Assembly (NCBI GenBank): GCA_963737905.1
Contig: CAVTUQ010000007.1
Location: 320,001 to 384,000, forward strand
From: an uncultured delta proteobacterium
GTDB lineage: Bacteria > Desulfobacterota > Binatia > UBA9968
Length of the DNA: 64,000 bases
Direction: 5' to 3'
Shown here: positions 16,968-45,060 of the stretch, piece by piece
Numbering within the stretch: the stretch's first letter is position 1
Layout of the letters: each line of letters starts with the position of its first letter
The notes under the pieces: generated by a model
What the model was told of the DNA's origin: nothing
Seen by the model: the letters and a program-made list of their open reading frames with translations, nothing else
The model's database searches: none
Made by a program: the position numbers and the translations under genes

Positions 16968-18125
16968 ATGTCTTTGCCTAACGGAAGGAAACGGATCGTT
17001 ATTCTCGGCGGCGGCTGCGGAGGCGTGGTCGCTGCTACCCATTTGGGCCGGAAACTTGGCGCCGATCACGATGTTATTCTCATCGATCGCCGGGCGGACC
17101 ATATTTTTATGCCGGCGTTCCTCTTCGTCATGCTTGGCGAGCGTCAACCCTGGGATATCAGCCGGAGCCTGAGTCATCTGCAAAAGCGCAATGTCAAAGT
17201 CATACAATCGGAGATACGAGGCATCGATCCAACCAGGCAGGAAGTTTCTCTGGAAAAAGAGAAGGTTAGTTACGATTACCTCATCGTCTCTCTAGGATTG
17301 CAGACGAGGCCGGATCTTGTGCCGGGATTTGCCGAAGCATCAATCCATCCCTGGGAGATGGACTCGGCCGTGCGTCTGCGCGATACATTGACAAGCTTTC
17401 GCGGCGGCCGGATTGTGGTTGGGGTTCCGTTGGGGCCATATCGATGCCCGCCAGCGCCTTACGAAACGCAGTGGATGCTCGACGGATATTTTCGCCAACG
17501 GGGCATTCGTGAGCGAGTCGAGATCGAATATTTCACGCGAGATCCGGAGCCGACCGGCGAGGCCCACGACCCGGTCGTCTGGATGGATACCGAGAGCAAG
17601 CGGCGCAACATAAAGCAAAATTACGAATTCGTGGTCCGAGGCATCGATCCGGAAAAGAAAATCGTAAAGGGTCTCTACAACTATAACCTGTCATACGACC
17701 TGCTGGTCATGGTGCCGCCGCACCGGCCGGCGCAGGTACTCCTCGACAGCGGGCTTGCGGAGACTGAGACCGGCATCCGCGTCGATTACGATACGCTGAA
17801 GACCAAATGGGAAAACGTTTACGCTATCGGTGACTGCGCGGACATGCCGGCTTCAAAGGCCGGCGGTGTGGCACACCAAGAGGCGGATGTACTGGCCCAT
17901 AACCTGGCTGTCGAAATCACCGGAAAAGGCAGGCCCGTCGATCTCTGGCTTCACACCATATGACTGCTCGCTTACGGCGCAGGTCGCGCCGCTGCAAATC
18001 GAACTGTTTATCCCACCGGCTGGCCGCCATTTGGCGTCACTGAACCGCGCACCTGGGGACCCTCGCGGCTTATCTATTGGGCAAAGATTGGTTTCGAGAA
18101 GTGGTGGCTGTGGCGGTATTTTTAA
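16968..18125 (+). CDS. sqr: Sulfide:quinone oxidoreductase-like flavoprotein, probable selenoprotein (UGA at 17961-17963)
   Basis: GGGCGG Rossmann motif, YRCPPAPYE, AIGDC; reading through TGA adds 53 aa ending in WAKIGFEKWWLWRYF. Confidence 0.8.
17975..17991 (+). promoter_or_regulatory. Bacterial SECIS element
   Basis: CGGCGC-AGGTC-GCGCCG hairpin starting 11 nt after the in-frame TGA. Confidence 0.8.
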
Positions 18126-18237: not shown

Positions 18238-18265
18238 AGTTGACATAATATATCTTATCAGACGT
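18238..18265 (-). other. Chromosomal dif site (XerC/XerD)
   Basis: Bottom strand ACGTCTGATAA-GATATA-TTATGTCAACT; XerD arm 9/11 to E. coli dif; gene orientation converges on this region. Confidence 0.85.
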
Positions 18266-18511
18266 TACGCTAGCGTAAGCGCCTGGACACAAATTTCGCC
18301 GTTCCAGCCAAACTTGAACGATCACTTCAAAATTTAGGCATCCGCTTTGAAATAGTCGAGCGCGTGAAAAAGCGCGACGACGACATCCCATCCACTCGCG
18401 ATCTACAAATCTTCAAATTAGAGCGCGAAGTCGCCGAGCTTAAAGACAATCGCAAAAACTTAAATTACAATCGGACTCTACCAGGGTCAGCGGGAATCTC
18501 AGACCGAGCTT

Positions 18512-18877
18512 AAAGCCATCGGTCTCGCCGTTGATGCGGGCACAGGTTTTGTACCAGTGGGCGGAGTGGTACGACAGTTTGCAAAAGGTGTTCAACGCGG
18601 AGCAGCAGCCGGCGAAGCCATGGCAGCAGCCAAGACAGCAGCGACGGCGGTCAAAGAAGCGACAGAGAAGAATGCTGACACGTTGATTCAAGATGCCATT
18701 GCGAAGGGGATGAAGACTGAAGGCGTTAAGTTCCCGATGCGGTGGAAAGATATTCCTGTAGATGTAGCAGAAGAGTTTGCGAAAACGGCCATCTATCCTG
18801 CTGGGTTGTCAGCAAGCGGATAAAGCAAAAATCCTTGCGACCCGTAGTAAAGCAGGTCCAGTAGAAAGCATTATTCA
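18512..18877 (+). repeat. Copy 1 of ~360-bp direct repeat (fragment of an Ala/Gly-rich, possibly phage-like gene)
   Basis: Near identical to 26998-27351. Confidence 0.9.
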
Positions 18878-18978
18878 ACAACCGCAAAAACTGACGCCGC
18901 GAGAAGAGTTCACCAGAGCAGGTCGATTCATTACCGATGAGCCGGACTACGAACCGCCTTGCCACTACCCTTTACGTC

Positions 18979-19084
18979 GTAGGATTGAAATATACGACGC
19001 TTCAGCGCAATTTGGGTTCAAACCCCGCGGGGCATTCCAATTGTTTTAAATTCAGACTGAATCACTACCCGCAGTCCCGCTCGT
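18979..19084 (+). repeat. Module copy M0 (palindrome half plus start of leader, truncated)
   Basis: Collinear with 33259-33366. Confidence 0.85.
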
Positions 19085-19795: not shown

Positions 19796-20034
19796 CATTG
19801 ATTCAAGGACAACTCGAAGCTTCATGCTCCCTCCATCCTGAAACGTTACGCCTCTGGGGCAGAAACAGCAAACTAACCATTGAGTATACTGACCAGTATA
19901 TTACAGAGCCCCAAGTCAGACTGAATCATTATTCAACAGTCCCGCTCGTGGACTCTCAATGTCAGGGAGTAGGTCTACAAGTTTTAAAGGACATTTTGCA
20001 CCTTGAATCATGATTCTTAATCATTTACTTAACA

Positions 20035-20278
20035 ATGAAAATGAAGGCGGAAGAGCTTTACGAATTGCGCAATGCTGCGAGCGTTACACAAGTGGAACTT
20101 GCAGCTCCATCTCGGCGTGGATCGTCGCACCGTGGGACGGTGGGAGAATGGTCAAATCAAAATCCCTTGCGCTTCGGTTATCGCGATTCGAGCGCTCCTA
20201 CTCCCCTGCCCTACTGATGCAGCGTGGCGCTGCTGGCTCTCCGCTGAACTAGCAAAGAAGACCAGAGCTAGGCCGTGA
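20035..20278 (+). pseudogene. XRE-family HTH protein, copy 1 (1-bp insertion near 20107)
   Basis: GCAGCTCCATC versus GCAGCTCATC in intact copy 23006..23248. Confidence 0.8.
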
Positions 20279-20517
20279 GCCACAAGCAAGTCAAGGTAAC
20301 GCGAACAATTTCAGATGATATCATCCTTCAGATTGTGGAGAATGGACAGATTAAAGAACAGACGACACTGTCCTGGTCGGAAGTCATCTATTTGGTTGTG
20401 GACATGCTTGCGCTATGGCGAGCGTTGCCTCTGCTCGTGCCGGTGGGTGACTACCTGGAGCAGATCTGTGATTTTTGGGAAGGAATATGCGAGCCGGTTA
20501 TCCACTACCTGATTTAA
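20275..20517 (+). CDS. Hypothetical 80-aa protein ORF80, copy 1
   Basis: GTGA overlap with HTH gene; same length and frame as copy 2. Confidence 0.7.
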   Translation: MSHKQVKVTRTISDDIILQIVENGQIKEQTTLSWSEVIYLVVDMLALWRALPLLVPVGDYLEQICDFWEGICEPVIHYLI

Positions 20518-20588
20518 CTTCTGTAAACTAGACGGGGGTCGCGGTTTGTTTGGTTGGGATGGCTATTATTATGCTTGCCTGGTCATGC

Positions 20589-21227
20589 CTAGGGTGTTAA
20601 TCCAGGATGCTCCCTAAGCGCACGTAGCTCTGCCAGAGACTCATAGAGTATAGTAAACGCGCTCTTCAAGAATAACGTAGCAATTGCGACTCCAACTATT
20701 ATGTCGGGCCAAGAAGAGGCAAAAAACGTTACACCTCCAGCGGCTACTAGCACCGCTAAATTTGCAATAATATCGTTACGCGAGCATAGCCATGTAGAAC
20801 GCATGTTAAGGTCATCGGCGCGATGGCGAAAAAGCAACAGGAAGCAAATACCATTACCCAGCAAAACTAGCACTCCGATAATGCCCATCGTCTCAGCGTT
20901 CGGTACAACCCCTAGCATCACTTTGTGAATGCCTTGTGCCAGGACTGCTAGTCCGAATGCGGCCATGATGATGCCTTTTACAATTGCAGCAGTCGCCTTC
21001 CACTTCAGGCTACGCCACAGGACATACAGGCTGAATCCGTACACAAGTGCATCGCCGAGCATATCGAGTGAGTCGGCGAGGAGCGCCGTCGAATGTGCGA
21101 TCAATCCAGCGGCCGCCTCCACGATGAACAGGACTGCATTGATGGCCAAGACGATAATGAGAATCTTCTTGTGTTCATTGCGCAACGCGCTCAATTCTTC
21201 TGCTTTTGTCTCGCAACAGGAGTCCAT
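20589..21227 (-). CDS. Cation diffusion facilitator (Co/Zn/Cd efflux) membrane domain protein
   Basis: STALLADSLDMLGD and DLNMRSTWLCSRND motifs. Confidence 0.9.
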   Translation of the reverse strand: MDSCCETKAEELSALRNEHKKILIIVLAINAVLFIVEAAAGLIAHSTALLADSLDMLGDALVYGFSLYVLWRSLKWKATAAIVKGIIMAAFGLAVLAQGIHKVMLGVVPNAETMGIIGVLVLLGNGICFLLLFRHRADDLNMRSTWLCSRNDIIANLAVLVAAGGVTFFASSWPDIIVGVAIATLFLKSAFTILYESLAELRALREHPGLTP

Positions 21228-21443
21228 TTCATTTCTAATGTTACCAATTCAATACTATTGTTGCCAGAATATGCGCGAGTGCAGTGACATGACTGCTACC
21301 GAGCGACAGGACATCGAATTGGAGATGTCCGCTGAGAGTTCCGTCTCAAAAATCGTTCGGCGAGACTTCTCAAATAAAACGAAGCAGGACGAAGTTGATC
21401 GACAACGCAAACTTGTAACCGTTCAAAACGCTCAATAAGGAGA

Positions 21444-22886
21444 ATGATCATGGCCCAACCAAAAACAAGGCAGAAAGCGGATCGTCACGGTTGGATCGGC
21501 ACCGAGAAGGTGAAGACCCGGTTCGGCACCTTCGAATTTAAAAACGGTTACCCCACGCTGGCAGCGGCGAACGCGCTGCTTGACCAGTTAAAATTCAACC
21601 GCGCAATCGAGGTCTATCTCACCCAAATCCCGGCTGTGGGCCTCTTCGAGTCGCGGCGTGGCGCTCGGGAGTTCGGGGCGACACGCTCCAACCAGGTCAT
21701 CATCTGGGAAACGCTCATGGACGCGAAAACACTCGTGCTCACAGCGAACACCGAGACGGTGTACGGGATGGGCTTCCTCGATGTGAAGAGCGATGGCCCA
21801 ACTGTCTTCGAAGCCCCGCCAAAAATGCTCGGGGCGGCAATGGACATTCTACAACGCTTCCTGGTAGACATCGGCCCGCTCGGACCAGACAAAGGCCAGG
21901 GCGGGAAATATCTTTTTCTGCCGCCGGACTATAAGGGCGATGCGCCGGGGGGCTATTTCGTCGTAAAGTCATCGACCTACTGTGTCAACTATTTCATCCG
22001 TGGTTTCAAAGTGGACGGGAAGACGGATCAGGCCGTGGCGCTCATGAAACAGACAAAAATCTACCCCCTGACCAAAGCAGGAGAGCCGCCGAAGATGGAG
22101 TTCCTGAACGGCTCGGGCCAGGCCATCGACACGATCCACTCAGATACCATTTCGTTCTTCGAGCAGCTTTCCGCGCTTGTGAACGAGGAACCTGCGGAAG
22201 TCTTCACGCCGCTTGAGCGGTTTTACATGCAGTCCATCGGCATCGAGAAGGGAAAGAAGTTCAACCCGGATGCGAAAACGAAGGCATTGCTCTCGGCCGC
22301 GGCGAAGGTAGCGGCTGCGATGGCGCGTGCCAACAGCTTCGCCTCTCAGGATTCGGACACGTTCTACTATAAGGATCGCCAGTGGCAGGGCGTCGGCGAT
22401 GTTCCCTATACCTTCATGAAGGACGGTGTGCTAGCGGTGGACCGCCGGGCATTCGTTTATTACATGGCACTCGGCAACTCGCCAGCTATGATGGCCAAGA
22501 ACGTCGGCGTCGGCTCGCAGTACCTCTGAACCTACAAGGATGCCAAAGGCAATTTCCTCGACGGTACGAAGAACTACAAACTGCACGTCCCACCCAAGAT
22601 TCCGATCAACAATTTCTGGTCGGTGCTGGTGTACGATTCGCTCAGCCGATCAGAGCTACAGAACGGCCAACCATTCCCCTCGGTCAGTCAGTACACCGAT
22701 CCGAAGATCAACGCCGACGGCTCGGTGGACATATATTTCGGCCCCCAGATGCCAAAAGGTCAGGAGAAGAACTGGATCAGGACCGTTCCCAAGAAAGGAT
22801 GGTTCCCGATCTTTCGCTTCTACGGCCCACTGGAACCCTTCTTCGACAAGAGCTGGAAGCTGAACGATGTCGAGCAGGTGAAATGA
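21444..22886 (+). pseudogene. DUF1254/DUF1214 protein with in-frame stop at 22527-22529
   Basis: LTANTETVY, GPDKGQGGKYL; frame continues TYKDAKGNFLDG...FWSVLVYD...FRFYGP. Confidence 0.85.
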
Positions 22887-23005
22887 ACTCCTCCGGCTAT
22901 CGTCGGTTGGAGTCACTAGCCACAGTCCATGTCGTGGAGTAGGTCTATAAGTTTTGACGGGACATTTTGCACCTTGAATCATGATTCTTAATCATTTACT
23001 TAACA

Positions 23006-23248
23006 ATGAAAATGAAGGCGGAAGAGCTTTACGAATTGCGCATCGCTGGGAGCGTTCCGCAAGAGGAGCTTGCAGCTCATCTCGGCGTGGATCGTCGCAC
23101 CGTGGGAAGATGGGAGAATGGTCAAATCAAAATCCCTTGCGCTTCGGTTATCGCGATTCGAGCGCTCCTACTCCCCTGCCCTACTGATGAAGCGTGGCGC
23201 TGCTGGCTCTCCGCTGAACCAGCAAAGAAAATCAGAGCTAGGCCGTGA
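23006..23248 (+). CDS. XRE-family HTH protein, copy 2 (intact)
   Basis: QEELAAHLGVDRRTVGRWENG signature. Confidence 0.85.
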   Translation: MKMKAEELYELRIAGSVPQEELAAHLGVDRRTVGRWENGQIKIPCASVIAIRALLLPCPTDEAWRCWLSAEPAKKIRARP

Positions 23249-23487
23249 GCCACAAGCAAGTCAAGGTAACGCGAACAATTTCAGACGACATCGTTCTTCA
23301 GATTGTGGAGAATGGAGAAGTCAAAGAACAGACGATACTCTCCGGGTCGGAAGTCATCTATTTGATTGCGGATATGCTTGCGCTGTGGCGAGCGTTGCCT
23401 CTGCTGGTGCCCGTGGGTGACTACCTGGAGGAGATTTGCGATGTTTGGGAAGGGATCTGCGAACCGGTCATCCATTACCTGATTTAA
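23245..23487 (+). CDS. Hypothetical 80-aa protein ORF80, copy 2
   Basis: Paralog of 20275..20517. Confidence 0.7.
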   Translation: MSHKQVKVTRTISDDIVLQIVENGEVKEQTILSGSEVIYLIADMLALWRALPLLVPVGDYLEEICDVWEGICEPVIHYLI

Positions 23488-23506
23488 AAAAAAGGGAAAA
23501 TCCAAC

Positions 23507-23560
23507 GAAGCCAAGCCCCAAGCACTGTCGTGATTAGCAGTTCTTGGGGCTTGTTGCTTC
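23507..23560. terminator. Hairpin between convergent genes
   Basis: CAAGCCCCAAG (23512) / CTTGGGGCTTG (23543) inverted repeat. Confidence 0.5.
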
Positions 23561-23636
23561 ACGTACGCGGACAAAAGACAGAGACGGCCAGCCGCTACGT
23601 GGATCGTTTGACGATACGAGCCTCTAGCCAGACTCG

Positions 23637-25202
23637 CTAGTTCCCCGTGGGCAGCCCGATGTTGAACCCGTCCTTCGCAAGTTGTTCTCTCAGATACTGG
23701 AGTCTCTGGTACTGCGTGACCGTGATTGGGCCCGAATAGCCTTCGCTCTGCAGTTTCCGCGGAGGGTGCTTCAGATAAGTTTGCATCAGCTCCTTGATCG
23801 CCGCGTTAATCGTCACGAGTGTCCAAGTGTGTTCCGTGTAATTGTTCATGAAGATGTCGTAGCGTTCCTGCGGATCCTGCCAGAGGTCGAAAATCTGGGG
23901 AACGGTCGCGACGTACGACTGCGCACCTTTCCAGCCAAGGTTGGAGTCGACTGCGAGGCCTCCCGTGTTCGCGCCGTCGTCACCACGCAGGTTGAAAACG
24001 GCCTTATAGTGGCCCACCCGCGCTGCGCCCGGCGTCAGCTCGTTCTCGGTAAAGTAGAACCAGGCCTTGCGCTCGGACTTGCCAGTGCCAAACAGCACCG
24101 GCGACATGTCGTAGCTATCGAAGATGATGGGCTTGCCGTCGCGATCGTTCTCCGGCAACTTCACGCCGGCGAGCGCGGCAAAGGTCGCCATGTAGTCGAG
24201 GCCGCCGACGAGATCAGCGGTCCGTGATAGAGCCCTGATGCCCGGGCCCCAAGCGATCGAAGGAACGCGGTTCCCGCCCTCGCGCACGGTGCCCTTGGTG
24301 CCTCGGAACGGCGTGTAGCCGGCGTCAGGGTAGACGTCCTGCCAGGCGCCATTGTCCGTCGTCCAGAATACGTAGGTATCCTTGTCGAGGCCGAGCGAAC
24401 GGATCTTGTCCATGATACGGCCGATCCGCGTGTCGTTCTCTACGATCGAATCCGCGTACTTCGATTTCGAGAGCGACTTGTGCTTGAAATCCGGGTGCGG
24501 CATGTTCGGCTGATGCACCTTCATGAAGTTGACGTGCATGAAAAATGGCGCCTCCGACTTCGCGTTGCTATCGAGGAACTCGAGTGCATCTTTCTCGACG
24601 TATTCATCGTAAAAGGGAATGCCCACCAGCCCCTTCTCAGGCGTGTTGACGTACTGGCCGTTGACCTTGAAGTCCTCTTTCGCCTTCTCGCCCGCCTTGC
24701 CCGACAGCGCGCCCTGAGTCACGCGCTCGAACATCGCGCGCAGTTCCGGATCCATATCTGGGAACCATTCCGGGTCGGCATAAGTGTACGCATTGAGGTG
24801 ATACAGGCCGCAGTGCCGCATTTCATCAAAGCCGTGCGCATTGGGAAGCGCATAGTCGGACTCGCCGAGGTGCCACTTGCCGGTGAAGAATGTCTTGTAA
24901 TCGGCGGTCTTGAGGACGGAGGCGAGGGTCCATTCGGCCGCCGGCAGCCCGCCGCCCTGACCCTGGAAGGCCACGGTCGTCATGCCGCTGCGATTCGGGA
25001 TGCGTCCGGTGATCATCGCCGCGCGGCCAGCCGTGCAACTCGGTTGCGCGTAGAAGGACATGAACTGCATGCCCTCGGCCGCCATCCGGTCGAGATTTGG
25101 AGTCGGCATTCCGCGATTCTCGCCGCCTCCATACACGCCCGCATCCCCATAACCGAAGTCGTCCGAGACGATGAGAACGATGTTTGACTTCTTTGGCGGC
25201 AT
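23637..25202 (-). CDS. Arylsulfatase (Cys-type)
   Basis: SDDFG, CTAGRAAMITG, GKWHLG motifs. Confidence 0.95.
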   Translation of the reverse strand: MPPKKSNIVLIVSDDFGYGDAGVYGGGENRGMPTPNLDRMAAEGMQFMSFYAQPSCTAGRAAMITGRIPNRSGMTTVAFQGQGGGLPAAEWTLASVLKTADYKTFFTGKWHLGESDYALPNAHGFDEMRHCGLYHLNAYTYADPEWFPDMDPELRAMFERVTQGALSGKAGEKAKEDFKVNGQYVNTPEKGLVGIPFYDEYVEKDALEFLDSNAKSEAPFFMHVNFMKVHQPNMPHPDFKHKSLSKSKYADSIVENDTRIGRIMDKIRSLGLDKDTYVFWTTDNGAWQDVYPDAGYTPFRGTKGTVREGGNRVPSIAWGPGIRALSRTADLVGGLDYMATFAALAGVKLPENDRDGKPIIFDSYDMSPVLFGTGKSERKAWFYFTENELTPGAARVGHYKAVFNLRGDDGANTGGLAVDSNLGWKGAQSYVATVPQIFDLWQDPQERYDIFMNNYTEHTWTLVTINAAIKELMQTYLKHPPRKLQSEGYSGPITVTQYQRLQYLREQLAKDGFNIGLPTGN

Positions 25203-25417: not shown

Positions 25418-25677
25418 CATTCGAATTTTTTAATTCAGACTGGATCATTATCCACACTCCCCCTTGTGGACCACTCAATATCAGGGCAGTAAGTCTGCAA
25501 GTTTTAATGGGACATTTTGCGCCTTGAATTGTGATCAACTTATTAGGTACTTGATAGTGAAAATGAAGGCGCAGGAGCTTTACGAATTGTGCATCGGTGC
25601 GAGGGTAACTACCTGGAGAAGATCTGCGGTTTTGGGAAGGGATCTGCGAACCGGTCATCCACTACCTGATTTAAGTT
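25418..25677 (+). repeat. Module copy M3 (leader plus internally deleted HTH/ORF80)
   Basis: HTH 5' end joined directly to GGGTAACTACC end sequence. Confidence 0.85.
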
Positions 25678-26320: not shown

Positions 26321-26997
26321 AAAAACTCCTTATGTCCCTGTTGCGGAGAACCCTAGAATTCGTCGGACGATAAACTGACCGGGGACGGATTGCTGTCTAA
26401 TATTGGACAAAGTTGAAAAAAATTATGGTCCCTGAAAACGAGTTACTGCAGAACACGAGATAGGTCCCGCTTTCTTCACCAGTCGGCTTGTCTTTTTCGA
26501 CCTGTCCCTTTCCATCTAAGAGCATGAAAAGTTGGGGCTTTTGTACGTGGAGAAAGGAAGAAAGTAGGACAGCGCCGATGGGGTATGCTCGGCCCCTCGG
26601 CCAAACCGTTTCAGTCCATCATAAGACCTTGCCGACACGCACGGTGTTTGCGGTTCTCTAGCGCTCATACAAATCGGGATCCTCGGCGAAGGCTTTTTGC
26701 TGTGCCACCAACCGATTCGGCTGGCTTAGTGAGATCCAATTTCTCGCGGTAGGCGACCATCTCGATAAGAAGCGGTTTCTTGATTGCCATTTATTTTTTG
26801 AAAGTTGTCTAATATTAGACGGAAATTCCTAGCGGTCAGCATAAAGGTAAATTCACGGGCTAGCACACCATTCGTTCCAACACCGGCATGGCCGAATGAT
26901 TCAGACGGTAGCCGCGCCGTTTACCGCGGTTGGGGAGGTATCCGCCAATGTTGCAGAACAAAATGTCCCTTAGTGCTGGGCCTCTCCTGGTCTTGCC

Positions 26998-27351
26998 AAA
27001 GCCATCGGTCTCGCCGTTGATGCGGGCACAGGTTTTGTACCAGTGGGCGGAGTGGTACGACAGTTTGCAAAAGGTGTTCAACACGGAGCAGCAGCCGGCG
27101 AAGCCATGGCAGCAGCGACGGCGGTCAAAGAAGCGACAGAGAAGAATGCTGACACGTTGATTCAAGATGCCATTGCGAAGGGGATGAAGACTGAAGGCGT
27201 TGAGTTCCCGATGCGGTGGAAAGATATTCCTGTAGATGTAGCTGAAGAGTTTGCGAAAACGGCCATCTATCCTGCTGGGTTGTCAGCAAGCGGATAAAGC
27301 AAAAATCCTTGCGACCCGTAGTAAAGCAGGTCCAGTAGAAAGCATTATTCA
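26998..27351 (+). repeat. Copy 2 of ~360-bp direct repeat
   Basis: Matches 18512-18877 except a 12-bp deletion and a few substitutions. Confidence 0.9.
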
Positions 27352-27431
27352 GGGTGACTACCTGGAGGAGATCTGCGATTTTTGGGAAGGGATCTGCGAG
27401 CCGGTCATCCACTACCTCATTTAGGGTTATG
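27352..27431 (+). repeat. Module copy M4 (end sequence only)
   Basis: GGGTGACTACCTGGAGGAGATCTGCG...CCACTACCTCATTTAGGGTTATG. Confidence 0.9.
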
Positions 27432-27630
27432 GTACAAATCGTAGGAGAATTCAGTTCAATTAGAGCTTAACGGACCGACTTCAGCGGCCGGTTATCCCGC
27501 CTCTCGTGAGGCCGAGAATATATGTTCTCCCCTCGGTTGAAAGCCGCAGGCTCCGGATTAAGCGGGTTCGGGTCCGCCCGTCATGTTCCCCTTGCCCTTC
27601 CGCGGGACGCACCCTTCGAAGATTGCAGCC

Positions 27631-28943: not shown

Positions 28944-30219
28944 GTTCTCGCTGAAAAAGTACGGTTAAAAGATTTGGATATTAGCCGTGTTTACGAGTCT
29001 CGAAAGTTGTCATCGGCATTGAGTTGGGTTTTCATCACATGTTAGGTTTGTTGCCACAGATTGAAAGCAAAGATCGCAAAGCCGGTCCATACGGCGGTAG
29101 CCGGCGAGCCCTTGGCCAGCACTCGGCCCAGAGAGAACCGGCGCTTGAGCAGACTAATGCCCGCTTCGATGCCGCAGCGAAACCGTTGCAGCTTTTTGAA
29201 CCATTTGGCGTGTTGATGTCTTTTCTCAGCTCTACTCAACCGACCAATCTTCGGAATGCCAACCCTACGGACTCCCAGCCGACTAAGCTTTTTCACATTG
29301 TCGGCGCTGTAATAACCGCGGTCGGTGGCCAATTCTCGGGGCGCTTGTTTGAGAATTTTTTTGGCCTGGCGGACCAAAGAAATAAGCTTGGTCTTGTCGC
29401 TAGGATTGCCCCTCTCAATCTCGTAGTGAACGATCACTCCCGAGTCGTCCTGGAGCAACTGCAGGGTGCGACCAAACTCCACCGGCTTGTCGAGTTTGCC
29501 CTTGACGATGGCCCGGGCCTCAGGATCAAAGAACGAAACGATGCGCTCGGGGATCGTACGCTTTCCCGCCAGTTTGTCCTGGGTTTGCCCAACCAGGCTT
29601 TCTTGGTGGCTCTCACATGACTGACAATCTTCTGACCCAACGAACTCGCCGTGCGGGTAAGGGTGCGCACTGCTTGATGGAGGATGCTGATGTCGGTGGG
29701 GTAAGCGATATGGGCTTCCAGAGTCGTCGAGTCGATGCGAATCCGGCGCGGTTTGATCGCTCGGTGCTTGACCAAATGGCCGACCAACTGCTTGTTCAGA
29801 TTGACAATCCGCTCCTCGCCAAATCTCTGGTTGAGCTTGATCAACGTGGTGGCGTCGGGAACCGTATCCATCAAAGACAGATGGCAGAAATAGCGCCAAG
29901 GCAATCTCTCTTTAACCTCCGTCTCCACTTCTTCGTAGCTCAGTCCCCAGCGAAACTTGAGATACATCATCCGCAGGTAAATCCCCGCTGGGGTGCCGGG
30001 CCGGCCCAGGCTATCATCGAAGAGTGCTTCGAAGGGCTTGAGCACCTCGCCCTGGCTCAGAAGCTCATCCACTTTCTTGAGCTCCTCATCCAACCGGTAC
30101 AAACTGGGATCGATGAAGCCATCGCCAAAACTCATCTGCTCAGATATTGCTTTGCGCATGACTTCTTTTACATCAATCCAATATTTACACCAACAACTTT
30201 CTGATTTTTCAGTGAAAAC
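28944..30219 (-). mobile_element. IS5-like element
   Basis: 15-bp imperfect TIRs GTTCTCGCTGAAAAA / GTTTTCACTGAAAAA flanked by TA. Confidence 0.8.
29042..30159 (-). pseudogene. IS5-like DDE transposase, frameshifted and probably internally deleted
   Basis: GRP, VPDATTL, RIDST in one frame; KGKLDKPVEFG, TDRGY, RCGIEAGIS in another. Confidence 0.85.
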
Positions 30220-30290
30220 TAGTAATGCTTTTTGATTAGGCTGCCCGCGCCTCCGGCATCTCGCTCTAAACCTTCGCTGCTGGGATCTCT

Positions 30291-30348
30291 CGCCAACGGT
30301 GGAGTTCAGCCCCCGCCGAAGGCGGTCGGCTGGAGCGATTGGTTCGGC
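30291..30348 (-). other. attC site downstream of EthD-like gene
   Basis: Bottom strand GCCGAAC-CAATC-GCTCCAGC-CGACCGCCTTCGGCGGGG-GCTGAAC-TCCACC-GTTGGCG: canonical R''-L''-L'-R' layout. Confidence 0.85.
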
Positions 30349-30455
30349 GCTTTCACAGCTCGGCAACGACTCCCGGCTCCTTCGATTTTCCTCCGATTTC
30401 TATAACCGCTTTCTGTCGCCGGCGGGGCGCCGTCGGCTCGCGTGGCGTTCCTTCC

Positions 30456-32059: not shown

Positions 32060-32137
32060 CAGGATCGAACTGAACGCATCGGGCAAATCGTACAAATCGC
32101 ACAGGATTTGATCGTCGGAGAAATCAGTTCAATCCTG
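32060..32137. repeat. REP/MITE-like palindromic element (family C, most complete copy)
   Basis: 14-bp TIR CAGGAT(C/T)GAACTGA...TCAGTTCAATCCTG; relatives at 18979, 27433, 33259, 34326, 34666, 37733, 41931, 42055. Confidence 0.8.
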
Positions 32138-33149: not shown

Positions 33150-33258
33150 TGCGCACTTCACTGTTACGCTATTTATCACGAACATGGAAGCTGAGAAAAC
33201 TGTTGTTTACCGCGGAAGGCAAACCGGATTCGTCGAGGGCAAAAGTCCAAAATTCGAC

Positions 33259-33560
33259 GTAGGATTGAACTGAACGACGCTTCAGCGCAATTTGGGTTCA
33301 AACTCTGCGAGGGGCATTCCAATTTGTTTAAAGTCAGACTGAATCACTACCCACAGTCCCGCTCGTGGACCTCTCAATTTCAGGGGAGTAAGTCTACAAG
33401 TTTTAACGGGACATTTTGCACCTTGAATCAAGATTCTTAATCAACTAATTAGTTTAAAGGAGCTTTACGAATTGCGCATCGGTGTGAGGGTGACTACCTG
33501 GAGGAGATGTGCGATTTTTGGGAAGGGATCTGCGAGCCGGTCATCCACTACCTGATTTAA
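33259..33560 (+). repeat. Module copy M5 (palindrome half, full leader, internally deleted HTH/ORF80)
   Basis: Matches M0, M1 and M3. Confidence 0.9.
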
Positions 33561-37732: not shown

Positions 37733-37799
37733 CAGGATTGAACTAACCGAGCCTCAGACAAATCTCACAGGATTTAGCCGATGGAGAAATCAGTTCAAT
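37733..37799. repeat. Family C palindromic element
   Basis: CAGGATTGAACT...AAATCTCACAGGATTT...TCAGTTCAAT. Confidence 0.8.
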
Positions 37800-37809
37800 T
37801 AGAAGCTTA

Positions 37810-37837
37810 ACGTCCGATATGAGGGATTAGTGCCACT
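37810..37837 (+). other. dif-like site, inverted relative to 18238
   Basis: ACGTCCGATAT-GAGGGA-TTAGTGCCACT: 9/11 to local XerC arm, 7/11 to local XerD arm. Confidence 0.55.
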
Positions 37838-41852: not shown

Positions 41853-42155
41853 ACACACCCCGTTCCGAGTGTTATTTATCACGCGGAACGAAGCGGTTTG
41901 TCAAATGAAGTTCTAGGACAAACGGAGATCAACGCCTCGGCCTAAACTCACAGGATTTGTGTGATGGAGAGAACGCAAATTGCCGATCTAAATATCCGTT
42001 TTTCACGACAATCAAACCACTCTCACTTAGCTCTGAGAATCGAAAAAATTCGGCGTAGCATTGAATTGTACGACGCCTCAGACAAAAATTTCACAAGATT
42101 TCTTCGTTGGAGAAGTCAGTTCCATTTAACACTACTCTGGATTAGATCCACCTAT

Positions 42156-42964: not shown

Positions 42965-43393
42965 ATGTTGTATCTCACAAAACTCATTCGGTCACATGTA
43001 ATGACTCTTGCGGCGTGTGGTGCAGTCTTGGCTACCATGCCCGTTGAGGCTGCTTTTGCAAAAGCCACTGATCCGAGTACGTATCAAGATTCTTGTCAAG
43101 CCCTTGATGTTGCCGGAGCAACCCTGACGGCAGTGTGTCGGAGAAAAGATGGCTCATTAAACGCGAGAACCGCAATTCGGATTCGCGGCATCGACAATGT
43201 GAACGGCAAGTTGGCCTATTCTCGTAATCCCGCTGCCATTAGTACGTATCAAGATTCTTGCGAGAACACTGGCGTTATTGGAGCGACCCTGACAGCAAAG
43301 TGTCGGAAAAAAGATGGCTCATTTAACGAAAAAACCACAATTCTGATTCGCGGCATCGATAATTTGAATGGAAAGTTGACCTATTCGAAGTAG
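42965..43393 (+). CDS. Secreted cyanovirin-N homolog (CVNH)-like lectin
   Basis: AAGGAG RBS, signal peptide, two tandem STYQDSC...GATLTAxCRxKDGS...IRGIDNxNGKL repeats. Confidence 0.8.
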   Translation: MLYLTKLIRSHVMTLAACGAVLATMPVEAAFAKATDPSTYQDSCQALDVAGATLTAVCRRKDGSLNARTAIRIRGIDNVNGKLAYSRNPAAISTYQDSCENTGVIGATLTAKCRKKDGSFNEKTTILIRGIDNLNGKLTYSK

Positions 43394-43608
43394 CAACTCG
43401 AGTGCGTTCGAGGTAGTTGTTTGCGTCCATGAGGGTGGAATGAATCTTGGTCGTTACCCCCTCCCGGCGTGGTGAGATGAGGGCATTTCCCTCGCTTTTG
43501 GAGCCATTGGAATGATCCGCCGGGAGGGGGGAACGCGATGGTCTGACATCATGTTTCTACCAGTGTGTCCTGTGAGCTGTCTCTCACATGGAAGGAACCG
43601 CGTGAGCG

Positions 43609-43721
43609 ACGAATTGCGCATCGGTGCGAGGGTGATTACCTGGAAGAGATCTGCGATTTTTGGGAAGGGGTCTGCGAGCCGGTTCATCCACTACCTGATT
43701 TCAAGTTATGTAAACTTAGAC
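43609..43721 (+). repeat. Module copy M6 (deleted form) ending in XerD arm TTATGTAAACT (43706-43716)
   Basis: Matches M3/M5 junction and M1 3' end. Confidence 0.9.
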
Positions 43722-43727
43722 AAAGCG

Positions 43728-43761
43728 CCTATGACTGGCACCGATTATCAGACGTTACGCT
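43728..43761 (-). other. attR-like site: intact XerC arm, degenerate XerD arm
   Basis: TTATCAGACGTTACGCT identical to 18255-18271. Confidence 0.7.
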
Positions 43762-43767
43762 TACGTC

Positions 43768-44463
43768 TCACTTTCCGACCGGCTGGGCGGCGAGCTTCGA
43801 TTCCAGCTCGCCTATTTGAAACCTGACATAGTTTGCGGACGGCGATTCGGCTTGGTCTTTTAGCAGCTGTCGATAAGCCGCGATGCCTCCCGTGACATCT
43901 CCCATTTGAACGGCACAACGCGCCTCGCCAAGAATGGCCCTGTCGCTGAACGCGCCTTTTATCTTTGCGGCTTCTTCGTAGTTTTTAATCGCTTCTTTAC
44001 ACTGCGATTGCCGCTCTTCGATGTCGGCTAACGTCAATAGGCCGATCTGGCGCATCAAGGAGTTTTGATCCGTGCCGGTTATAAATCGCTGTGCCGCAGT
44101 CGCTGCCTTGGTGAGATCGTTCAGGGCAAGGTAGCTATTCGCCTCGTAGAGATGAGCCAGATTAGCGTACCGCGACCATCGCTGGGCTTGAACCTTTTCC
44201 AGGCCCGCAATAGCTTCGCGATATTTTTCCGCATGATACTGAGCCATGGCCTGGCCGAACTCCTGCGCGGCGATTGAGTCCTGGCGCCCTTTGAAAACTG
44301 CCCAGCCCCAGATCCCGAGAAGTATCAAGATGGCGGCCGCGATCCCCAGGTAAACCGCGACACGCCGCCTCTGGTAGAACTCCAGGGCGTCTTCGGTAAC
44401 GGTTTGAAACCAATCCGGTTGCCGGAGCTCCTTGCGAGTAATTCGCCTACTAGTGGTCGCCAT
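43768..44463 (-). CDS. Membrane-anchored TPR protein (YfgM-like)
   Basis: TRKELRQPD N-terminus, one TM, TPR helices. Confidence 0.8.
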   Translation of the reverse strand: MATTSRRITRKELRQPDWFQTVTEDALEFYQRRRVAVYLGIAAAILILLGIWGWAVFKGRQDSIAAQEFGQAMAQYHAEKYREAIAGLEKVQAQRWSRYANLAHLYEANSYLALNDLTKAATAAQRFITGTDQNSLMRQIGLLTLADIEERQSQCKEAIKNYEEAAKIKGAFSDRAILGEARCAVQMGDVTGGIAAYRQLLKDQAESPSANYVRFQIGELESKLAAQPVGK

Positions 44464-44532
44464 TACGTTTTGAGAGACCGCGAAATGTGCCGAACCTGGA
44501 AACAGCCGGAGAAATATTCGCGCGGTGAGAAA

Positions 44533-45060
44533 CTATTGCTTATACTTGAAGTCTTCCGGGGCCATCTTTTCAAGAATCTCGGCCCATTTTTCCTTGGAAA
44601 CGTTGGAGACATTCTCCACGGCGGCTTCTTTGGCCTCTTCGCTTTGCTGCAAGACGCTAGAGGCCTCCAACACCGCCTTGGCAACATAGATCGGGGCCTT
44701 GGTCCGCAAAGCCAGCGCGATGGCATCGCTGGGGCGCGAATCGACGACCAGCTCTCGTCCTCCGATGTTGATGTGAACCAGAGCGTAATAGGTGTTTTCC
44801 TTTAGTTCCGTAATCTCCACCGACTCAACGGCACAGCCTACTTCGCCAAGAATATTCTTGAGCAAGTCGTGAGTCATCGGTCGGGCCATCTTGATGCCTT
44901 CAATTTCGGTCGCCATGGCTGTGGCTTCCAGAAGGCCGATCCAGATCGGCAGGTTAAGCTTATTGTCTGTGTCCTTGAGGATGACGATCGGTGTCTTGGT
45001 TACCGGGTCGAGGGTTAAGCCTCCGACGGCCATCTGAATCGTATCTTCCCGTTTGGTCAT
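44533..45060 (-). CDS. Bifunctional nuclease family protein (DUF151)
   Basis: LPIWIG, RPMTHDL, DSRPSDAIALA. Confidence 0.95.
   Translation of the reverse strand: MTKREDTIQMAVGGLTLDPVTKTPIVILKDTDNKLNLPIWIGLLEATAMATEIEGIKMARPMTHDLLKNILGEVGCAVESVEITELKENTYYALVHINIGGRELVVDSRPSDAIALALRTKAPIYVAKAVLEASSVLQQSEEAKEAAVENVSNVSKEKWAEILEKMAPEDFKYKQ

Follow-up and report, generated by a model that had tools for sequence, protein, structure and literature searches.

A repeated HTH-ORF80 gene module in a 25.5-kb island at the dif site of an uncultured Binatia bacterium

Gene content and conservation of the HTH-ORF80 module

We analyzed a 64,000-nt stretch of the genome of an uncultured delta proteobacterium (GTDB lineage Bacteria; Desulfobacterota; Binatia; UBA9968), covering positions 320,001 to 384,000 of contig CAVTUQ010000007.1 in assembly GCA_963737905.1. 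We refer to this whole stretch as the window, and all coordinates are those of the window unless stated to be of the contig. The window harbors a module of ~0.6 kb with three parts: a leader containing a palindrome, an 80-codon gene encoding a helix-turn-helix (HTH) protein of the XRE type, and an 80-codon gene with a GTG start, designated here ORF80. There are two long copies of the module, B (19913-20517) and C (22895-23487), both on the plus strand and 92-93% identical. Copy C includes a promoter-like site (22954-22982) overlapping the palindrome (22976-22987), an intact HTH gene (23006-23248) and ORF80 (23245-23487). Copy B includes the palindrome leader (20005-20016), an HTH gene broken by a 1-nt insertion (20035-20278) and an intact ORF80 (20275-20517). 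In both, the stop codon of the HTH gene and the GTG start of ORF80 share the sequence GTGA. An earlier note on this DNA had described two full copies coupled by this overlap; the two copies, the overlap and ORF80 are all present, but the HTH gene of copy B is frameshifted and the overlap is not kept in relatives.

The two ORF80 genes are each open for 80 codons and differ by nine nonsynonymous and 17 synonymous changes (dN 0.05, dS 0.39), in agreement with the claim of the earlier note that ORF80 keeps its length and frame with mostly conservative changes. Since dS reaches 0.39 within one genome and yet dN is 0.05, B and C appear to be old copies that have been constrained separately. We extended the analysis to nine full-length DNA copies (36 pairs), leaving out those of metagenome loci L011, where three nucleotides are deleted in frame, and L014, where the contig ends within the copy. 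The estimates in frame were dN 0.065, dS 0.41 and dN/dS 0.16, against dN/dS of 1.08 and 2.28 when the same region was read in frames +1 and +2, and ORF80 is therefore a constrained protein-coding gene. It is open in 10 of 10 full-length DNA copies, including those in which the HTH gene is broken or missing.

ORF80 proteins of 79-80 amino acids form 27 clusters; public metagenomes contributed 25 further full-length ones, 79-89% identical and all from short contigs. No more distant relatives were found among 1.84 billion cluster representatives, where ten matches had E values of 0.001 or less, one of them reaching 1e-30 and the rest being fragments or weak. ORF80 was not confirmed in any other genome of the GTDB species collection, nor was it found in the 122 other genomes of the order or in 400 others sampled from the phylum, many of the searched genomes being incomplete metagenome-assembled genomes in which repeats are poorly assembled. 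The phage (50,697) and plasmid (72,556) records contained no homologue, and a search of the ESM Atlas gave no usable match. The protein is very acidic (pI 4.38; net charge of -6 to -11 across the family). Its AlphaFold model, based on 27 sequences and with a predicted local distance difference test score (pLDDT) of 72, consists of three strands (residues 4-10, 16-22 and 25-32) followed by three helices (34-54, 57-67 and 72-79). Of the checks that the earlier note had proposed, profile searches of the first gene identified a known domain, HTH_3; ORF80, for which a structure was predicted as well, was left with neither a family nor a clear fold match.

The product of the HTH gene, a basic protein (pI 9.0), matches the Pfam family HTH_3 with 32.6 bits (cut-off 23) and is similar to regulators of the controller and Cro types: its nearest solved relative is the restriction-modification (R-M) controller C.AhdI (E 0.004), it matches the PADLOC Control_protein model (E 1e-4), and it has sub-threshold matches to HTH models of the MqsA, HipB and RstR types. 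The gene is intact in four of the nine copies that could be judged, namely copy C and those of L007, L009 and L010. It is frameshifted in copy B and in L013, has an altered N-terminus in L011 and L014, and is absent upstream of ORF80 in L006. The genome of the window encodes one intact HTH gene (copy C) against two ORF80 genes. In copy B the assembled sequence has an extra C near 20107, which splits the frame into 20035-20217 and 20072-20278; this C is missing from copy C and from the six metagenome copies with sequence at that position. In L007, L009 and L010 the HTH protein has 71 amino acids owing to a 1-nt difference and ends ~27 nt before the start of ORF80, and the GTGA overlap is restricted to the two copies of the window. 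The C-terminal tail is accordingly not conserved, its frame differing between the window and the metagenome loci. Over the first 57 codons of the four intact copies dN/dS is 0.23, and the HTH gene is under purifying selection.

The palindrome GAATCATGATTC is perfect in both copies and lies in the leader at 20005-20016 and 22976-22987, as the earlier note had reported. Allowing up to two mismatches, it has nine matches in the window where 3.5 are expected, a number that was reached in none of 100 shuffles. A 33-nt stretch of the leader that bears the palindrome is identical in five of six long copies although dS in the adjacent genes is ~0.4, and hence the leader is conserved beyond synonymous sites. 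In copy C the palindrome is overlapped by the predicted promoter, TTGACG-17-AATCAT. The conservation of this leader makes a repressor role for the HTH protein plausible.

Besides the two long copies, which the earlier note had described, the window contains four deleted remnants, D to G, all on the same strand as B and C. In the short form D (25427-25673) the leader and the first ~15 HTH codons are fused out of frame to the final 73 nt of ORF80, and its deletion junction (..GGTGCGAG followed by GGTGAC..) recurs in F, in G and in a short copy of L007. Remnant E (27351-27423) retains the final 73 nt of ORF80, which abut a copy of the repeat at 18512-18877. Short form F spans 33327-33559 (33255-33559 with its junction repeat), and short form G, truncated at its 5′ side (~43600-43701), is the last module of the array. 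All module DNA of the 6.7-Mb assembly is confined to one 25-kb stretch, at ~19000-43700 of the window. The cargo between the modules was different in every locus compared while the module recurred, bearing out the view of the earlier note that the HTH-ORF80 pair is the only recurring coding content. Between copies B and C, for example, Pfam identifies two unrelated genes, one for cation efflux on the minus strand (20589-21227) and one with DUF1254, which starts at 21444. The latter runs to 22529 and is followed by open frames in other phases (22382-22942 and 22623-22886), and its C-terminal part may be frameshifted. The repeat mentioned above is present at 18512-18877 and at 26998-27351, the copies being 98-99% identical with a 12-nt indel between them; the first holds an 88-codon open reading frame (ORF; 18557-18823) with no family match, and the second continues without a gap into the 73 nt of ORF80 that make up remnant E.

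The island at the dif site

Close to copy B, at 18238-18265 on the minus strand, lies a 28-bp site composed of a XerC arm (ACGTCTGATAA), the centre GATATA and a XerD arm (TTATGTCAACT). It matches the generic core ATAA-N6-TTATGT exactly and has a single copy in the genome. With up to three mismatches the 28-mer was found in 67 of 90 genomes of the family and in 26 of the 31 high-quality ones, nearly always once, whereas the reversed control gave none; four of the genomes with the 28-mer are flagged unpublished. From this sequence conservation we take the 28-bp site to be the dif of the lineage. Along the 488-kb contig the GC skew is positive from 0 to ~340 kb and negative beyond, with the switch at ~20000-25000 of the window, which places the modules and the DNA around them at the replication terminus.

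The modules belong to an island of 25.5 kb (18266-43744) on the XerC-arm side of dif, in which unrelated cargo genes are parted by module copies, remnants and junction repeats. An exact 16-mer comprising the XerC arm and five flanking bases, TTATCAGACGTTACGC, occurs exactly twice in the window, at dif (18255-18270) and at the far end of the island (43745-43760). There it is part of a dif-like site (43728-43755, minus strand) in direct orientation relative to dif, which has an exact XerC arm (43745-43755, no mismatches), an unrelated centre and a degenerate XerD arm, with mismatches at 7 of 11 positions at a spacing of 5 and ~8 counted at a spacing of 6. The chromosomal right flank begins immediately past this site. 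To the left of dif lies an oxidoreductase gene (16968-17963), and to the right of the island (43768-45060) are genes for a TPR_21 protein and a bifunctional nuclease. In 13 of 19 dif loci of relatives (two of the 19, L030 and L032, are from genomes flagged unpublished) the site is empty, the left-flank gene, dif and the right-flank genes being directly adjacent, and in G040 and G041, of the same genus, the right flank starts directly after the XerC arm of dif. The segment 18266-43744 is therefore an insertion at dif, on its XerC-arm side. As the left site retains the GATATA of the family and the centre of the right site is foreign, the strand exchange probably took place on the XerC side.

No integrase was found among the 24 ORFs of the island that were scanned against Pfam, smaller ORFs not having been scanned. 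The only recombinase among them is a split insertion sequence transposase (29042-30366), consisting of two overlapping frames with DDE_Tnp_1 and DUF772 domains and probably frameshifted; the scanned ORFs showed no sign of a transfer apparatus or of phage genes. The genome does encode XerD (357 bits, above the cut-off) and a XerC-like gene. Thus, like IMEXs, the integrative mobile elements that exploit Xer, the island is inserted at dif where relatives have an empty site, has dif at one end and another dif-like site at the other, and showed no integrase of its own among the ORFs scanned.

Nine metagenome loci with the module were examined, of which only L009 and L010 extend far enough to reveal a linkage to dif. 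In these two loci, 0.1 and 0.7 kb separate dif from a module, and dif and module are oriented to each other as they are in the window; L009 is collinear with the left flank of the window through dif and for 100 nt past it. L007 has, 125 nt after its short module, a dif-like site whose central region is exact, whose XerC arm has three mismatches and whose XerD arm is degenerate. The earlier note had set the pair in a Xer/dif context and had proposed that its homologues be sought near dif, where they are indeed found in the window, in L009 and in L010. Its opposite scenario, of ordinary prophage genes unlinked to dif, is at odds with this linkage and with the lack of phage or plasmid matches.

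A further Xer-type feature is a lone XerD arm, TTATGTAAACT, at 43706-43716 on the plus strand, 5 nt past remnant G. It is identical to the consensus XerD arm of the family, is inverted relative to dif and is the sole copy of this 11-mer in the 6.7-Mb genome. Its counterpart in copy B is TTCTGTAAACT at 20519-20529. With at most one mismatch, the motif is found 2-5 nt after the ORF80 stop in 7 of 16 module right ends examined. The XerD arm of dif itself, TTATGTCAACT, occurs six times in the genome and its reversed controls zero to one time, and additional XerD-binding sites are a possibility.

Other candidate sites were discarded. A scan of the island for both arms of dif gave six matches where shuffled sequences gave 6.0, and only the two boundary sites are convincing. 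A tRNA-like 3′ end at ~19010-19045, within a junction repeat, was considered as a tRNA-gene attachment site; ARAGORN reported no tRNA and Rfam no family in the window, and the genome has no matching tRNA end. We also recorded several observations on the neighborhood of dif. In seven cases dif lies within ~500 nt of a contig end (G040, G042, G073 twice, G101, G105 and G122), and G054, G073, G084 and G122 (G054 and G073 being flagged unpublished) have two dif-like matches each; there are hints that repeats or islands beside dif break assemblies in this family. In L016 and L017 (G037 and G038) the XerC side of dif lacks the usual TPR_21 flank, and other insertions may sit at dif in that genus. 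Within the island, two 40-nt inverted repeats (26389-26428 and 26787-26826; 78% complementary) surround 358 nt with no long ORF, possibly a miniature transposable element, and a CVNH-domain gene at the right end (42965-43393) contains an internal tandem duplication (43076-43221 and 43241-43386; 81% identity).

Integron-type features of the array

An imperfect hairpin of 63-87 nt with AAC...GTT end boxes (e.g., GTTTAAC...GTTAGGT) comes within ~35-65 nt after the module in four of the metagenome loci (L006, L010, L011 and L013). The z-scores of their folds are -3.1 to -4.4 in L011, L013 and L006, and -1.5 to -1.7 in L010; a similar hairpin was recognised by eye in L009. By their sequence and predicted folding these hairpins look like attC sites of integrons. 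In the window, copy C is followed at 23500-23559, 13 nt past ORF80, by a 60-nt hairpin (ATCCAAC...GTTGCTT, with AAC...GTT ends; -14.4 kcal/mol), which may be attC-like or a terminator and which contains a terminator-like site on the minus strand. Copy B has no attC-like candidate after it. Another hairpin, read by eye after remnant E (27465-27563, plus strand), has the ends GCTTAAC ... ATTAAGC, with ATT in place of GTT; its fold pairs both ends, with an energy not above that of shuffles (z -1.1). Crude scans revealed no enrichment of attC-like sequences in the island: a loose one gave 34 matches, mostly in flanks and ORFs, and a strict one gave four, of which a single one is both intergenic and within the island.

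A full-length integron integrase, the only IntI that we found (TIGR02249, 456 bits, cut-off 265), is encoded at contig positions 226498-227442 (L035), ~110 kb from the island. The array of modules thus does not adjoin an integron integrase with its attI, as integron cassettes would, and no obvious attC array was detected beside intI in a crude scan. The cargo genes of the island are separated by a family of junction repeats of ~40-130 nt (..GGAGAAATCAGTTCAAT..), located at 18975-19084, 27419-27460, 32092-32133, 33255-33366, 37758-37799 and 42084-42125. These repeats are also present on five other contigs and at ~480 kb of the contig of the window, and in some loci they directly precede attC-like sites. 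Taken as attC hairpins themselves they failed, as ten folds on both strands had z-scores of -1.2 to +1.3 and are not structured. A forward dif-like site at 37810-37837 was likewise dropped; we now read it as belonging to an attC-like remnant, of which it would form the AAC box and the beginning of the stem, with a fold that does not exceed shuffles. The island is a mosaic in which Xer-type and integron-type features stand side by side.

Possible functions of the pair

We tentatively favor, at somewhat less than an even chance, an interpretation in which the pair is the core of small mobile cassettes and ORF80 helps their insertion or persistence at dif, as a functional analogue of XafT, TLC-phi's Xer activation factor, and not as its relative. 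The XRE-HTH gene and ORF80 would form the self-regulated two-gene core of a family of such cassettes, which would pile up in one orientation in the island inserted at dif. The HTH protein may be an autorepressor of the Cro or controller type that binds GAATCATGATTC over its own promoter and thereby sets the level of ORF80. ORF80 would be the selected payload and would act in trans by binding another protein and not DNA, protein binding being the most likely mode for a protein so small and acidic. It is conserved in every copy, its two old copies are separately constrained and it is the only shared gene of the elements at dif; selection would therefore act on the element rather than on the host, and ORF80 would benefit the former. 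Its most likely target would be site-specific recombination, through the host XerCD, the integron integrase of the genome, or both.

TLC-phi offers the closest comparison. Both TLC-phi and the gonococcal island lie between dif and a site with a degenerate XerD arm (available text of PMC6744903 and PMC9226527), and eight positions deviate in the XerD arm of the TLC attachment site (available text of PMC9226527). The island shares with TLC-phi its integration at dif, the lack of an integrase (here among the ORFs scanned), an attachment site that pairs a good XerC arm with a strongly degenerate XerD arm, and an XRE-type HTH gene beside that site. Unlike XafT, which combines an XRE HTH with a DUF3653 domain, its HTH protein is a bare domain of 71-80 amino acids with no DUF3653, and the candidate effector is a separate, unrelated acidic protein. 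The island also differs from TLC-phi in having no phage genes, in residing in an uncultured lineage rather than in a gamma- or beta-proteobacterium, and in the pattern of the central regions, which suggests an exchange on the XerC side and not on the XerD side. The gonococcal island carries a type IV secretion system, whereas this island is a mosaic of unrelated metabolic genes parted by repeated small modules. That activation factors of other superfamilies may exist was suggested by the discoverers of XafT themselves (available text of PMC6744903).

Several points weigh against this interpretation. No physical or functional tie of either protein of the pair to XerC, XerD or IntI emerged from the analysis, and the directionality factor and Xer accessory protein that the earlier note had proposed are candidate roles. 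If the crossover was on the XerC side, as it appears, it would agree with a XerC-first route, on which known IMEXs need no activation factor (available text of PMC9226527). Short forms that lack both genes persist, implying that neither gene is needed in cis. The linkage to dif comes from only three loci, one genome and two contigs, which may be close kin, and the XerD-arm motif, present at only 7 of the 16 right ends, points the opposite way to dif and lacks a proper XerC arm next to it. Since attC-like hairpins follow the module in several metagenome copies, it could also be plain integron cargo, able to move without any function of its own. Finally, ORF80 matched no family in Pfam, NCBIfam, PHROGs or PADLOC, and its model had no clear match in a Foldseek search of the PDB (best E 0.16). 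With VIA-align, where a single-strand-binding fold of the PC4/PUR/Whirly kind was the candidate, the best Z score was 5.2 (PC4, 51 residues, 2.6 A; PUR-alpha, also 5.2), below the typical background of 7-8 of this tool, and the net charge of -8 argues against nucleic-acid binding by ORF80.

A rather unlikely alternative, though the best placed of those that we considered, is that the pair is an addiction cassette of the toxin-antitoxin (TA) kind, with ORF80 as the toxin and the HTH protein as its autoregulating antitoxin, whose repetition would stabilize the array and protect the island from deletion. TA cassettes of sedentary chromosomal integrons, such as the superintegron of Vibrio cholerae, are two-gene units with their own promoter that are present in several copies per array. 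The HTH-ORF80 unit is similar to them in being small, made of two genes that overlap in the copies of the window, provided with its own promoter and candidate operator, and repeated within one array. Hairpins resembling attC follow it in L006, L010, L011 and L013 (z -1.5 to -4.4) and, by eye, in L009, an integron integrase is encoded in the genome, and the HTH protein has its sub-threshold matches to the antitoxin HTH models of the MqsA and HipB types. The joint loss of both genes in the short forms is also the decay expected of a TA pair. On the other hand, type II toxins are usually basic and antitoxins acidic, whereas ORF80 is strongly acidic (pI 4.4), and it belongs to no recognised toxin family, its sole PADLOC match having an E value of 0.019 (12 bits). 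The HTH gene is frameshifted, truncated or absent in five of the nine judgeable copies and ORF80 is intact; this genome has one intact HTH gene for two ORF80 genes, and the C-terminal tail, which would be needed for toxin binding, is not conserved. In further contrast to the integron cassettes, the regulator is often lost and ORF80 kept, the integrase is 110 kb away and the island shows no attC enrichment. The TA role that the earlier note had offered as its alternative is thus weakened, ORF80 being acidic and intact where the HTH gene is broken or missing.

Also unlikely is that the pair works as a switch of the controller type whose output is a small acidic effector against the host or competing elements or cells, such as an anti-restriction protein, an anti-repressor or a mimic of DNA; this effector would be expressed briefly on entry into a new cell and would be unrelated to recombination. 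This would agree with the HTH protein being nearest to R-M controllers (C.AhdI and the PADLOC Control_protein), with a candidate operator that overlaps the promoter, and with the small size and very low pI of ORF80. A Foldseek search of BFVD also gave uncharacterised small phage proteins as the best matches to the ORF80 model, all of them weak (best E 0.026). By analogy with R-M controllers such as C.AhdI, a small XRE HTH protein would be encoded just upstream of a timed gene and co-transcribed with it, with a palindrome at its own promoter. Unlike in R-M systems, however, the downstream gene encodes an 80-amino-acid protein and not a nuclease, and the module has no methyltransferase partner. 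Nor is ORF80 similar to known anti-defence families, no transfer apparatus or phage genes were seen among the scanned ORFs of the island, and the association with dif would be left without a reason.

A more daring view, and an improbable one, assigns to dif itself the role of attI, as the docking site of a cassette array. Host XerCD, or the IntI of the genome, which is closely related to Xer, would capture small circular cassettes beside dif, each bearing a consensus XerD arm and a hairpin of the attC-like kind. The HTH-ORF80 cassette would encode an accessory factor of the array, and ORF80 would be a new protein, unrelated to DUF3653, that turns on or guides the recombination. pdif modules carry cargo between full XerC/XerD sites in alternating orientation on plasmids, some of them with small TA-like pairs. 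The island resembles them in that its cargo units are delimited by Xer-type sites, and differs in having one full dif, one half-degenerate site and lone XerD arms. Such modules occur on Acinetobacter plasmids (available text of PMC7399989). The accessible parts of the literature that we found on IMEX, dif, attC and integrons describe no cassette array at dif, and no Binatia integrons were found there.

Two further explanations are contradicted by the data and are very improbable. The earlier note had mentioned XafT, and the presence, as in TLC-phi, of an XRE HTH gene in an island that is linked to dif and has a degenerate XerD arm, together with a weak match to the VC1465/XafT model NF040522 (E 0.0018), might suggest that the HTH protein is a true member of this family (VC1465, HTH plus DUF3653). 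This identity was not upheld: at 18.3 bits the match is far below the cut-off of 70, and it is limited to the HTH (profile positions 12-42); DUF3653 gave no Pfam match at E values up to 0.01, a length of 71-80 amino acids leaves no room for a second domain, and ORF80 had no match either. It is, moreover, DUF3653 and not the HTH that carries the activity of XafT (available text of PMC6744903). That the copies are decaying, functionless repeats with frames open by chance, as the deletions and frameshifts in several of them might suggest, is contradicted by the dN/dS of ORF80 (0.16 in frame against 1.08 and 2.28) and by its being open in 10 of 10 full-length copies.

Elements that hijack the dimer-resolution machinery have been well studied only in a few proteobacterial pathogens, and XafT/DUF3653 is the only family of activation factors known, its discoverers having left room for others. 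The present analysis defines a dif site for a large uncultured lineage and shows a clean insertion there, the site being empty in relatives, and it offers in ORF80, a constrained orphan protein and the only recurring gene of the inserted elements, a concrete candidate. If ORF80 were only an addiction or cargo gene, it would still represent a new orphan family in a new dif island, of moderate interest. An origin of integrons from Xer-exploiting elements has been speculated on by Escudero et al. (available text of PMC4792948), and if dif did act here in the role of attI, the array would be a living intermediate between such elements and integrons. That a single array combines dif with lone XerD arms and with attC-like hairpins bears on how integrons arose from Xer-type systems.

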